A stretch of 4,745 nucleotides of DNA from a virus (IMGVR_UViG_2671180656_000004:1-4745); one strand, 5' to 3'; positions 982 through 4,691 are shown, counted from the stretch's first letter. The notes: generated by a model not told the origin, from the letters alone. Numbers and translations are program-made.

Positions 982-1497
982 ATGGCGTTAACACACCGAG
1001 AACTCTGTCAGATTGCGTACAAGTTCCTTAAGCGCAACGGGTTCAAGGTTTGCTTTCATGACCGCTTTATAGCCGTAACCAGTACCGGAGAACAGCCAGA
1101 TGCTATGGGATTCAGAAATTCAGCATCATGCCTGATAGAGGCGAAGTGTTCTCATGCTGACTTGTTGGCAGATAAAAAAAAGCGTTTCCGTAAAAATCCG
1201 TCTCTTGGAATGGGCGACTGGCGATTCTTTATTAGTGAGCCGGGAATTATTTCAATTGAGGATTTACCACCTGGCTGGGGATTACTTCACGTTGTTAACG
1301 GAAGAGTACGGAAAGTACATGGGTGGCCCAAGGGTAATTGCTGTTGGGGTAATCCTGACGATAAGCCATTTACTGGGAATAAGCAGGTTGAATGCGATTA
1401 CATGTTATCTGCATTAAGGCGCATGGAGTTGAGAGGGCACCTTAATGAAATATATGACGGTGTGATTGTTAATAAGAAAGAAGGAAACGCGGCATGA
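982..1497 (+). CDS. Hypothetical protein with N-terminal PD-(D/E)xK nuclease-like core
   Basis: ATG 982 lies 1 nt after the upstream stop with SD AAAGGAGAG at 969-977. The track's 820 start would overlap the upstream gene by 160 nt. Translation MALTHRELCQIAYKFLKRNGFKVCFHDRFIAVTSTGEQPDAMGFRNSASCLIEAKCS gives a helix Glu, a PD (codons 1096-1101) and an E-A-K (1138-1146) 12 residues later, in alpha-beta-beta-beta-alpha order. The C-terminal roughly 90 aa is unassigned. Confidence 0.6.
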   Translation: MALTHRELCQIAYKFLKRNGFKVCFHDRFIAVTSTGEQPDAMGFRNSASCLIEAKCSHADLLADKKKRFRKNPSLGMGDWRFFISEPGIISIEDLPPGWGLLHVVNGRVRKVHGWPKGNCCWGNPDDKPFTGNKQVECDYMLSALRRMELRGHLNEIYDGVIVNKKEGNAA

Positions 1498-3116: not shown

Positions 3117-3371
3117 ATGCAGACAATCATCTATCAGATAACCCCCAGCAAATGGTGTACGGAGAGAGTCCTTATTGCATCAACAGGGCTAAAGCCCGGC
3201 ACCATCGAGCGGGCCAGAAGAAAGTCATGGATGCAGGGAAAAGAATACCGCCATTACGCTGTAGAAGGTGATCCTGGGCATTACAGTGAATGCCTGTACA
3301 ACATCGAAGAAATTATGCGATGGATCGAAAACCAGAAACAACCAGGTGCCAAAAATGCAAGTTCCGGTTAA
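3117..3371 (+). CDS. xis: Excisionase-like protein
   Basis: 84-aa ORF immediately upstream of and co-directional with the integrase. GAGG lies upstream of ATG 3117. The small basic protein (ITPSKWCTERVLIASTGLKPGTIERARRK...) resembles the enterobacterial prophage excisionase-like family as I recall it. Confidence 0.6.
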   Translation: MQTIIYQITPSKWCTERVLIASTGLKPGTIERARRKSWMQGKEYRHYAVEGDPGHYSECLYNIEEIMRWIENQKQPGAKNASSG

Positions 3372-3404: not shown

Positions 3405-4691
3405 ATGAGTAACGCATCATACCCGACAGGCGTTGAAAACCATGGCGGATCACTCCGTATATGGTTTCACTATAATGGCAAACGTGTCAGAGAAAACCTC
3501 GGTGTTCCTGACACAGCCAAAAACCGGAAGATCGCTGGTGAACTTCGCACTTCCGTTTGTTTTGCAATCAGAATGGGGAGTTTCGACTACGCCGCGCAGT
3601 TCCCTAATTCCCCTAACCTGAAACACTTTGGTCTGGGAAAAAGAGAGATAACCGTTAAGGCACTTTCGGAAAAATGGTTGGACCTTAAGAAAATTGAGAT
3701 TTGTGCGAATGCACTTAACCGTTACCAGTCAGTAATTAAAAACATGTTACCAATGTTAGGTGAAAAAAAACTGGTTTCATCCATAACAAAAGAGGATTTA
3801 CTTTTCGTAAGGAGAGATTTGTTGACCGGTTACCAAAAGCTTTCTAATGGAAAGACTTCTTCCATAAAAGGGCGCTCAGTGGTCACGGTAAACTACTATA
3901 TGACAACCATAGCTGGAATGTTTCAATTTGCAACAGATAATGGTTATACCTCAGGAAACCCATTTAACGGTCTGGCTCCCTTAAAAAAGTCCAAGGTAAA
4001 ACCAGATCCTCTCACCCGTGACGAATTTATTCGTTTTATTGAGGCTTGCCGTCATCAACAAACAAAAAACCTGTGGATTCTCGCTGTATACACGGGTATT
4101 CGTCACGGGGAGTTGGTATCGCTGGCATGGGAAGATATAGACCTTAAAGCAAGGACTATAACCATCCGTAGAAATTATACAAAACTTGGCGAATTCACTC
4201 CACCAAAAACCGATGCAGGCACCGGAAGGACAATTCATCTGGTTCAACCAGCTATTGATGCTCTTAAAAGCCAGGCGGAAATGACCATGCTTGGAAAGCA
4301 ACATTCTGTAGAGGTGAAGCAGAGGGAATATGGGAGAACTGCTGTGCATAAATGCACTTTTGTTTTTAGTCCTCAGGTAACAAAACAGCAGCAGTTGTCC
4401 GGACCTCACTACAAGGTTGACTCCATCAGGGAGTCATGGACAAGTATCTTAAAACGCGCAGGTCTGAGACACAGAAAATCGTACCAATCCAGGCATACTT
4501 ATGCATGCTGGTCACTTGCCGCAGGAGCTAATCCTAGTTTTATCGCAAGCCAGATGGGCCACACAAACGCACAAATGGTATTCAATGTTTACGGAGCATG
4601 GATGAAAGACAACAATCACGAACAGATAGAACTCCTTAACAAAAGACTATCTGAAAGTGTCCCATGTATGCCCCATAAGAAAGCAGGGTAA
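3405..4691 (+). CDS. int: Phage integrase, tyrosine site-specific recombinase (Rac/e14-like lambdoid type)
   Basis: 428-aa ORF with SD GGAGG (3393-3397) before ATG 3405. The C-terminal catalytic domain has box I Arg (YTGIRHGELVSLAWEDIDL), box II SRHTYACW, His in MGHTNAQM and the nucleophile Tyr in NVYGAW. The N-terminal arm-binding-type domain starts MSNASYPTGVENHGGSLRIWFHYNGKRVRENL. Confidence 0.93.
   Translation: MSNASYPTGVENHGGSLRIWFHYNGKRVRENLGVPDTAKNRKIAGELRTSVCFAIRMGSFDYAAQFPNSPNLKHFGLGKREITVKALSEKWLDLKKIEICANALNRYQSVIKNMLPMLGEKKLVSSITKEDLLFVRRDLLTGYQKLSNGKTSSIKGRSVVTVNYYMTTIAGMFQFATDNGYTSGNPFNGLAPLKKSKVKPDPLTRDEFIRFIEACRHQQTKNLWILAVYTGIRHGELVSLAWEDIDLKARTITIRRNYTKLGEFTPPKTDAGTGRTIHLVQPAIDALKSQAEMTMLGKQHSVEVKQREYGRTAVHKCTFVFSPQVTKQQQLSGPHYKVDSIRESWTSILKRAGLRHRKSYQSRHTYACWSLAAGANPSFIASQMGHTNAQMVFNVYGAWMKDNNHEQIELLNKRLSESVPCMPHKKAG

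Follow-up and report, generated by a model that had tools for sequence, protein, structure and literature searches.

The locus and its nuclease-like gene

The window, a stretch of viral DNA of 4,745 nucleotides (IMGVR_UViG_2671180656_000004:1-4745) that was analysed over its whole length, is the int-proximal end of a lambdoid (Stx-type) prophage in which every gene lies on the + strand and reads toward xis and int. The ORF (open reading frame) at 982-1497 encodes a protein of 171 amino acids that, with high confidence, is a single-domain PD-(D/E)xK protein of the MmcB-like/archaeal Holliday junction resolvase lineage. The type of protein is known, and the branch to which this one belongs is otherwise undescribed in the literature searched. 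The genes of the window and the ribosome-binding signal of the ORF are the following.

55-213, + strand: DksA/TraR-like zinc finger (ORF with Pfam/PHROG assignments)
210-980, + strand: Ead/Ea22-like protein of 256 amino acids, the upstream neighbour in the same operon (PF13935, E 1e-35)
971-975, + strand: Shine-Dalgarno AGGAG, 6 nucleotides before the ATG at 982 and inside the 3' end of the Ea22-like gene (from the sequence)
982-1497, + strand: nuclease-like coding sequence of 171 amino acids, assigned to a divergent MmcB-like PD-(D/E)xK family (PHROG 9263/631)
1494-2312, + strand: modular protein of 272 amino acids, the downstream neighbour, its start overlapping the stop of the nuclease-like gene (ORF; PHROG 14306, PHROG 60)
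2346-2630, + strand: DUF551 protein
2718-2960, + strand: DUF4222 protein
3117-3371, + strand: excisionase
3405-4691, + strand: tyrosine integrase

The ORF extends from the ATG at 982 to the TGA at 1495-1497 (516 base pairs, bp) and is genuine and well supported. The same 516-bp gene is called by RefSeq in phage TL-2011b, the AGGAG is conserved in both YYZ-2008 and TL-2011b, and the composition is unremarkable. A longer version of 225 amino acids starting at the TTG at 820 was rejected, as it would overlap the Ea22-like gene and the homologues begin at M1. The Ea22-like stop codon occupies 978-980 and the next gene starts at 1494, within an ATGA that overlaps the TGA of the nuclease-like gene. 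Since the Shine-Dalgarno sequence lies inside the end of the upstream gene and the stop and start signals overlap on both sides, translation is expected to be coupled to both neighbours. A scan for promoters and terminators revealed nothing above background or chance level, and no RNA was identified in the window by Rfam. The gene thus appears to lie inside the phage early-left operon, as a cistron coupled in translation to its neighbours. As established for lambda pL, the early-left operon is repressed in lysogens. Its position in this operon implies that the product would be synthesised upon infection or induction and not in the quiescent lysogen.

Fold and family of the protein

The protein carries the motifs THRELCQ (residues 4-10), EQPDAMGF (37-44), LIEAKCS (51-57), ADKKKRFRKNP (63-73) and GWPKGNCCWGNPDD (114-127), with 12 residues between D40 and E53. 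The codons of D40, E53 and K55 are located at 1099-1101, 1138-1140 and 1144-1146, respectively. An AlphaFold2 model, built from an 81-sequence alignment (mean predicted local distance difference test, pLDDT, 91.2; predicted template modelling score, pTM, 0.85), predicts an alpha-beta-beta-beta-alpha-beta core of the restriction-endonuclease-like type. In the model D40 opens strand 2 and E53-x-K55 closes strand 3, the canonical PD-(D/E)xK layout. Helices are assigned by DSSP to residues 5-18, 58-64, 68-71, 119-123, 134-150 and 153-159, and strands to residues 23-26, 41-45, 48-54, 80-85, 100-105 and 108-113. The elements of the domain map to the DNA as follows.

994-1035, + strand: helix 1, residues 5-18, with conserved H5 and L8 (DSSP of the model; conservation)
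1090-1152, + strand: predicted catalytic core, residues 37-57, with E37-x-P39-D40 opening strand 2 and E53-A-K55-x-S57 closing strand 3 (model strands 41-45 and 48-54)
1159-1191, + strand: helix 2 and basic segment, D60-L-L-A-D64-K-K-K67-R-F-R70 (alignments with 3dnx and MmcB)
1207-1431, + strand: second half of the domain, residues 76-150

The second half holds G76-M-G78-D-W-R81 with strand 4, P96-x-G-W99-G100-L101 with strands 5-6, the variable loop GWPKGNCCWGNPDD, and a long C-terminal helix with E137 and R146-R147. A Foldseek search of the PDB with the model placed mostly PD-(D/E)xK domains in the top ranks (for example R2 retrotransposon endonuclease, AF1548, Hjc and XisH), none of them at E <= 0.001, and the model also matches the structure of 3dnx. 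A single-sequence search of the PDB with the query returned noise alone (a lectin and a flavin reductase).

Conservation was assessed in a wide alignment of 92 family representatives, 32-60% identical to the query, and in a smaller one of 12 proteins with 27-61% identity to the query, which include the Ruegeria MmcB alongside homologues from lambdoid, Ackermannviridae and Vibrio phages and from IncF, Acinetobacter and Pseudomonas plasmids. Residues D40, D60, G78 and R81 are invariant among the 92 representatives, where H5, E37, P39, E53, K55, S57, D64, K67, R70 and G76, together with P96, W99, G100, L101, E137 and R147 of the second half, are conserved at 90% or more. The 12 proteins share D40, E53, K55, S57, D60, D64, G76, R81 and L101 without exception. 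Judged from these alignments, the conservation of the D40/E53-x-K55 motif is far beyond chance, and a conserved acidic residue at the start of strand 2 is followed by the (D/E)-x-K of strand 3. An earlier note on this DNA had described the ORF and its motifs, which are as it gave them, D40 and E53-x-K55 being invariant even in distant homologues. Its view of a compact PD-(D/E)xK nuclease-like protein is borne out on the two points where it could have failed, as the predicted fold is restriction-endonuclease-like and the motif residues are conserved. The glutamate of helix 1 that it had counted among the core residues does not hold this position: E7 is variable (E, Q, K or R), and the helix instead conserves H5. 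E37 is almost invariant.

The same residues bear on whether the protein is an enzyme. A catalytically dead PD-(D/E)xK fold, serving as a DNA-binding or scaffolding protein such as an accessory of a primase or helicase, has precedent in the inactive PD-(D/E)xK domains that are common in the superfamily (PMC3424549), and the tight coupling to primase genes seen in virulent phages could mean a protein-protein partnership. This explanation is nevertheless highly improbable, as even very distant members retain D40, E53, K55, E37, D60 and D64 with little or no variation, a pattern that, at the level of the alignments, would be expected of an active enzyme.

The family assignment is carried by profile comparisons with MmcB. 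The structure 3dnx represents DUF1052, which is PF06319 and COG5321 (PMC3424549), a family that had earlier been linked to archaeal Holliday junction resolvases (PMC1189080). 3dnx is SPO1766 of Ruegeria pomeroyi, and a search with a 3dnx fragment returned solely PF06319 proteins named 'MmcB family DNA repair protein'. The profile of the 92 representatives matches 3dnx at E 3e-5; a narrow profile, restricted to proteins at least 59% identical to the query, gives E 0.16, significance thus being reached solely with the wide profile. Alignment by hhalign of the 92-representative profile with 33 MmcB-family proteins, all of PF06319, gives 98.2% and E 5.8e-14 over 124 columns, with query residues 8-150 lying on MmcB residues 11-137. 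Since this alignment extends to residue 150, the C-terminal stretch of about 90 residues, which the earlier note had found to match nothing recognisable, is the second half of an MmcB-like domain and aligns with the C-terminal part of MmcB/3dnx. It contains strand 4 with R81, the WGLL strand and the A-L-R-R helix, the loop GWPKGNCCWGNPDD being its sole variable part. Residues D40, E53, K55 and S57 align with the D, E, K and S of 3dnx/MmcB, and the family signature ExKxSxxDFxxDxK is recognisable in the query (IEAKCSHADLLADKKK) as in 3dnx (IECKSSRADFQADAK), with a leucine in the query at the position of the F, residue 61. Several of the viral models matched at E <= 1e-3 bear the label 'DNA repair protein MmcB-like' (E 1.6e-7, 1e-5 and 9e-4) or 'MmcB family DNA repair protein'. 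Weak matches to PF06319, whose gathering score is 22 bits, occur in 29 of the 92 relatives (best E 2.9e-4), and the fusion-length relative P0261 is the sole one past the cutoff, at 23.1 bits. The query matches PHROG 9263 (E 2e-122) and PHROG 631 (E 2e-93), both without assigned function. The homologues of Ackermannviridae, of Vibrio siphophages and of temperate Vibrio phages all belong to PHROG 631; these same homologues also touch PHROG 5429 ('DNA repair protein') at E 1e-7 to 5e-15, whereas the query itself does not.

The phage and plasmid branch and MmcB share the catalytic D...ExK, the signature, the arginine of strand 4, the G-L of strand 5 and the C-terminal A-x-R-R-L helix, and the present protein and MmcB are of similar size, about 150-170 amino acids. 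The branch differs in displaying E37-x-P-D where MmcB has R-V-D, in its conserved H5 and W-G-L-L strand, in the variable Gly/Trp/Cys loop at residues 114-127, and in a basic 7-residue insertion after helix 2 (KKxFRxxP, in KKxFRxxPxxGMG), which is a gap in MmcB/3dnx. True MmcB proteins are chromosomal, mostly alphaproteobacterial (PMC3424549) and, in Caulobacter, SOS-regulated (PMC9578287), in contrast to the branch, which resides on phages, prophages and plasmids.

Descent of the MmcB-like family from archaeal Holliday junction resolvases (PMC1189080) raises the alternative of a dedicated Holliday junction or branch resolvase, an Hjc-like dimer debranching phage DNA before packaging. Hjc (PF01870) and the archaeal Holliday junction resolvase (AHJR)-like nucleases, which include YraN/UPF0102, present a minimal core of similar size, and their beta2-beta3 'PD...(12)...iE.K' region aligns with the present protein. 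Weak Pfam matches to Hjc are found in 55 of the 92 relatives (best E 1.3e-4), and the wide profile matches the beta2-beta3 part of Hjc chains at E 0.1-0.4. Similarly, the 20-69 kilobase stretch viewed in the Vibrio phage vB_VpS_C2 contains RecA, a 'Holliday junction DNA helicase' and SbcCD-like exonucleases and no annotated resolvase. All the Hjc matches fall below the gathering threshold, however, and the query has no PF01870 match even at E <= 1. In Hjc the acidic residue of helix 1 is catalytic. Neither alignment, of 92 or of 12 proteins, has a conserved catalytic glutamate on that helix, where E7 is variable and H5 conserved. Moreover, lambdoid phages normally carry their own resolvases, Rap/NinG or RusA, in the nin region, and a resolvase makes little sense in the plasmid leading region, where copies of the gene also occur. 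A dedicated resolvase is therefore considered unlikely.

Resemblance to phage T7 endonuclease I is restricted to gene placement. This product of gene 3 is a PD-(D/E)xK resolvase encoded near the primase-helicase gene 4, and as a small PD-(D/E)xK nuclease of a virulent-phage replication module, near a primase, it offers an analogy of position alone. No sequence relationship was seen, one 'endodeoxyribonuclease I' viral model matching at E 0.25.

The family is large. A word-index search found 313 homologues of the protein, and with HMMER an exhaustive scan of 1.84 billion cluster representatives gave 3,316 at E <= 1e-3, of which 2,531 at E <= 1e-10; the family comprises at least 3,316 clusters at 50% identity. 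It is present in 928 of 5,426 complete E. coli genomes (17%) and in every Ackermannviridae genome examined. The resemblance to SPO1766/MmcB had already been noted by other annotators for related phage proteins; the record of Vibrio phage H8, for instance, carries the remark 'spo1766 structure'. One copy on a Photobacterium plasmid has been given the name 'MmcB family DNA repair protein' by the Prokaryotic Genome Annotation Pipeline (PGAP). The placement near MmcB provides a large family left unannotated with a testable biochemical hypothesis and defined catalytic residues. That a prophage accessory region should hold another PD-(D/E)xK nuclease is unsurprising by itself, and the interest of this one lies mainly in its abundance and in the three-way pattern of its contexts.

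Contexts in phages and plasmids and the proposed role

In virulent phages the homologue, of about 205 amino acids, is located directly upstream of a PHROG 47 DNA primase in the Vibrio Mardecavirus vB_VpS_C2, in Salmonella Vi01 (Kuttervirus) and in Vibrio phage D509. One gene separates homologue and primase in Klebsiella Taipeivirus phi1_175010 and in Dickeya Limestonevirus Ds9CZ, where the intervening gene is a homing endonuclease. The homologues lie at these positions of the extracted loci.

L002, 4863-5480: virulent-phage homologue, vB_VpS_C2
L003, 3980-4597: virulent-phage homologue, Vi01
L011, 2480-3163: virulent-phage homologue
L009, 2480-3094: virulent-phage homologue
L004, 3980-4588: virulent-phage homologue

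The annotated primases of Vi01 (L003 4597-5661) and vB_VpS_C2 (L002 5477-6607) have no Pfam match at E <= 0.001, their identity as primases being supported by PHROG 47 alone. The primases of the Ackermannviridae and Vibrio Mardecavirus lineages are too diverged to align by BLASTP, and adjacency to a primase is therefore common to two very distant phage lineages. In vB_VpS_C2 the homologue belongs to a block that comprises a DnaC-like protein, a polymerase exonuclease, two helicases, the homologue, the primase, a clamp, DNA polymerase I, RecA and SbcCD. This phage (homologue also at L008 42007-42624) in addition encodes a QueD-like 6-pyruvoyl-tetrahydropterin synthase and MazG, a hint of 7-deazaguanine DNA modification.

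The neighbours vary in temperate phages. The gene downstream encodes a DUF551 protein in TL-2011b, Ea22-like genes accompany the homologue in IncY P1-like phage-plasmids, and other phages have a primase, an HNH endonuclease or a gene without assigned function in the downstream position, which hok takes in the IncF plasmid examined. In Vibrio phage D217 the homologue shares its region with NinB/Orf, a methyltransferase and an HNH gene, and in Vibrio phage H8 in the integrase-proximal early region. The coupling to a repeat-module protein that the earlier note had mentioned does not hold beyond the window, since the downstream neighbour is not conserved; a functional pairing with the 272-amino-acid protein was discarded for this reason.

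The homologue is also present in 864 plasmid records. The IncF plasmid pAV54_F (NZ_OQ344286.1) carries a 65%-identical copy of 172 amino acids in its leading region, the part of a conjugative plasmid that is transferred first (L013 6977-7495), in the order ssb, DUF905, ParB-like, psiB, psiA, homologue and hok, with traM further on, and the homologue overlaps the stop of psiA. In PLSDB the psiA-homologue junction is found in 205 plasmids and psiA in 4,575. More distant copies lie near orphan methyltransferases in an Acinetobacter conjugative plasmid and in a Pseudomonas megaplasmid.

Taken together, the protein is best explained, with moderate confidence, as a metal-dependent MmcB-like phosphodiesterase that is made early and serves the DNA of its own element. 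The more specific role of an endonuclease of replication, recombination or repair is advanced tentatively, with rather less confidence. It is proposed because of the role of MmcB in Caulobacter, the position in the primase/replication module of virulent phages and the position after ssb-psiB-psiA in plasmids. Caulobacter MmcB is an SOS-induced PD-(D/E)xK endonuclease that is required for tolerance of mitomycin C and cisplatin and is proposed to act with translesion synthesis (PMC9578287). On this view, the protein would be made early, after infection or induction, from the early-left operon, and the predicted metal-dependent endonuclease would cut DNA in a structure- or lesion-dependent manner, on branched, gapped or damaged intermediates. 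Such cleavage may support replication, recombination or repair of the DNA of the element soon after this DNA becomes active in the cell. If the protein does repair or process replication intermediates, it would fill a gap in the replication modules of ViI-like phages, a group employed in phage therapy and biocontrol.

Several observations weigh against this explanation. The query lacks a Pfam MmcB-like match, or any NCBIfam match, even at E <= 1, and all members of the branch are named 'hypothetical protein' or, by UniRef, 'YraN family', the UniRef name of the plasmid homologue being 'YraN family protein'. The spatial clustering of D40, E53 and K55 is presumed from the positions of strands 2 and 3 in the model and from the alignment with 3dnx. 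Literature searches found no paper on the phage/plasmid branch. Adjacency to a primase is absent in lambdoid phages and in the Vibrio phages VAP7, PJ32 and VHB1, and the leading-region and orphan-methylase contexts suit an anti-defence or establishment role equally well.

Such a factor, made on DNA entry, might either destroy or process a host nucleic acid (a defence component, or host or competitor DNA) or process the incoming DNA of its own element to escape surveillance. The gene follows ssb-psiB-psiA in the IncF leading region, with the junction in 205 plasmids, and plasmid leading regions are enriched in anti-defence genes (PMC11541004). Orphan DNA methyltransferases lie close by in the Acinetobacter plasmid, the Pseudomonas megaplasmid and Vibrio phage D217, and in lambdoid and P1-like elements the gene occupies the variable accessory early region, among Ea22-like genes. 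The polymorphism of presence and absence, to judge from the junction and psiA counts given above, points in the same direction. In contrast, no similarity to known defence-related models was found, as PADLOC-DB 2.0 gave 0 matched families at E <= 1, and the primase-side, core-replication placement in 5 of the 5 checked genomes of Ackermannviridae and their Vibrio relatives, as well as in Mardecavirus, indicates housekeeping DNA metabolism. The nearest characterised relative is, likewise, a repair enzyme (PMC9578287). An establishment or counter-defence factor is thus regarded as doubtful; were it nevertheless correct, the family would add a new enzyme class to the islands of plasmid leading regions.

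The three recurring contexts, adjacent to a primase, in a phage early operon and in a plasmid leading region, together suggest that mobile DNA, when it enters a cell or replicates, has a common need which a small nuclease meets. A bolder and distinctly speculative extension, which is considered improbable, is that virulent phages (linked to the primase), temperate phages (in early-left or nin operons) and conjugative plasmids (after psiA) share one nuclease of early DNA entry. Equally conjectural is its site of action, which would be single-strand/double-strand junctions or host nucleic acid at the first conversion or replication. If this were true, the nuclease would represent an undescribed step of establishment or counter-defence.

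Allele decay and mosaic surroundings

Decayed alleles of the gene are frequent. In YYZ-2008 (NC_011356.1, L018 1659-2172, compared with 954-1508 of the window) a 2-bp deletion and a substitution fall exactly in the I-E-A-K codons, and the resulting frameshift splits the gene into two annotated ORFs, gp08 of 58 amino acids and gp07 of 95 amino acids. The 58-residue PHROG 16308 is explained by this frameshift, and related O157:H7 Stx1 prophages probably carry the same lesion. A cluster of C-terminal fragments of 111 amino acids has 645 members and that of the full-length protein 1,363, and several further truncated alleles display different frameshifts. The frequency of truncated alleles therefore indicates that the gene is dispensable for the lysogen. 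If a nuclease of early DNA entry were indeed shared among these elements, inactivation of the E-x-K in the O157 Stx1 prophage lineage would reflect the cost of its activity to the host.

The same O157 Stx1-prophage allele, broken exactly at the E-x-K codons, could reflect toxicity and, together with the location of the gene in the prophage accessory region, would fit an abortive-infection or toxin effector that defends the lysogen against a second infecting phage through DNA cleavage. Such an effector is very hard to reconcile with a gene that has no promoter or terminator of its own and is an internal cistron of an operon repressed in lysogens. No sensor or partner gene is conserved alongside, PADLOC gives no match, the gene is conserved in strictly virulent phages, and the frequent truncation of its alleles speaks against host-level selection. 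Among the three functions that the earlier note had offered, abortive infection is accordingly the least compatible with the data, and its probability is considered very low.

The window is a mosaic. The closest phage records are YYZ-2008, VT1-Sakai and Stx1a-converting phages, and no single complete E. coli genome or phage record spans at least 80% of the window in one piece. In comparison with YYZ-2008, other sequence replaces the central part of the Ea22-like gene and most of the 272-amino-acid gene (567-953 and 1509-2275), and identity is 97-99.9% over the shared nuclease-like gene and int-xis end.

Among database proteins, family members are found fused to an Ead/Ea22-like N-terminus (P0090, P0091 and P0100, 240-245 amino acids, Salmonella), and other fusions join a dATP/dGTP pyrophosphohydrolase (PF04447) and a TniB-like ATPase (P0217 and P0137, respectively). 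As a clue to function these fusions were set aside, being uninformative or probably artefacts of gene calling.

The 272-amino-acid gene downstream contains a 33-nucleotide tandem duplication at 1881-1945, the copies of which are 78% identical and encode NFRENKNSSTN and NFREIAETSTN. Its product displays the motif ACRAAML twice, near residues 120 and 262.

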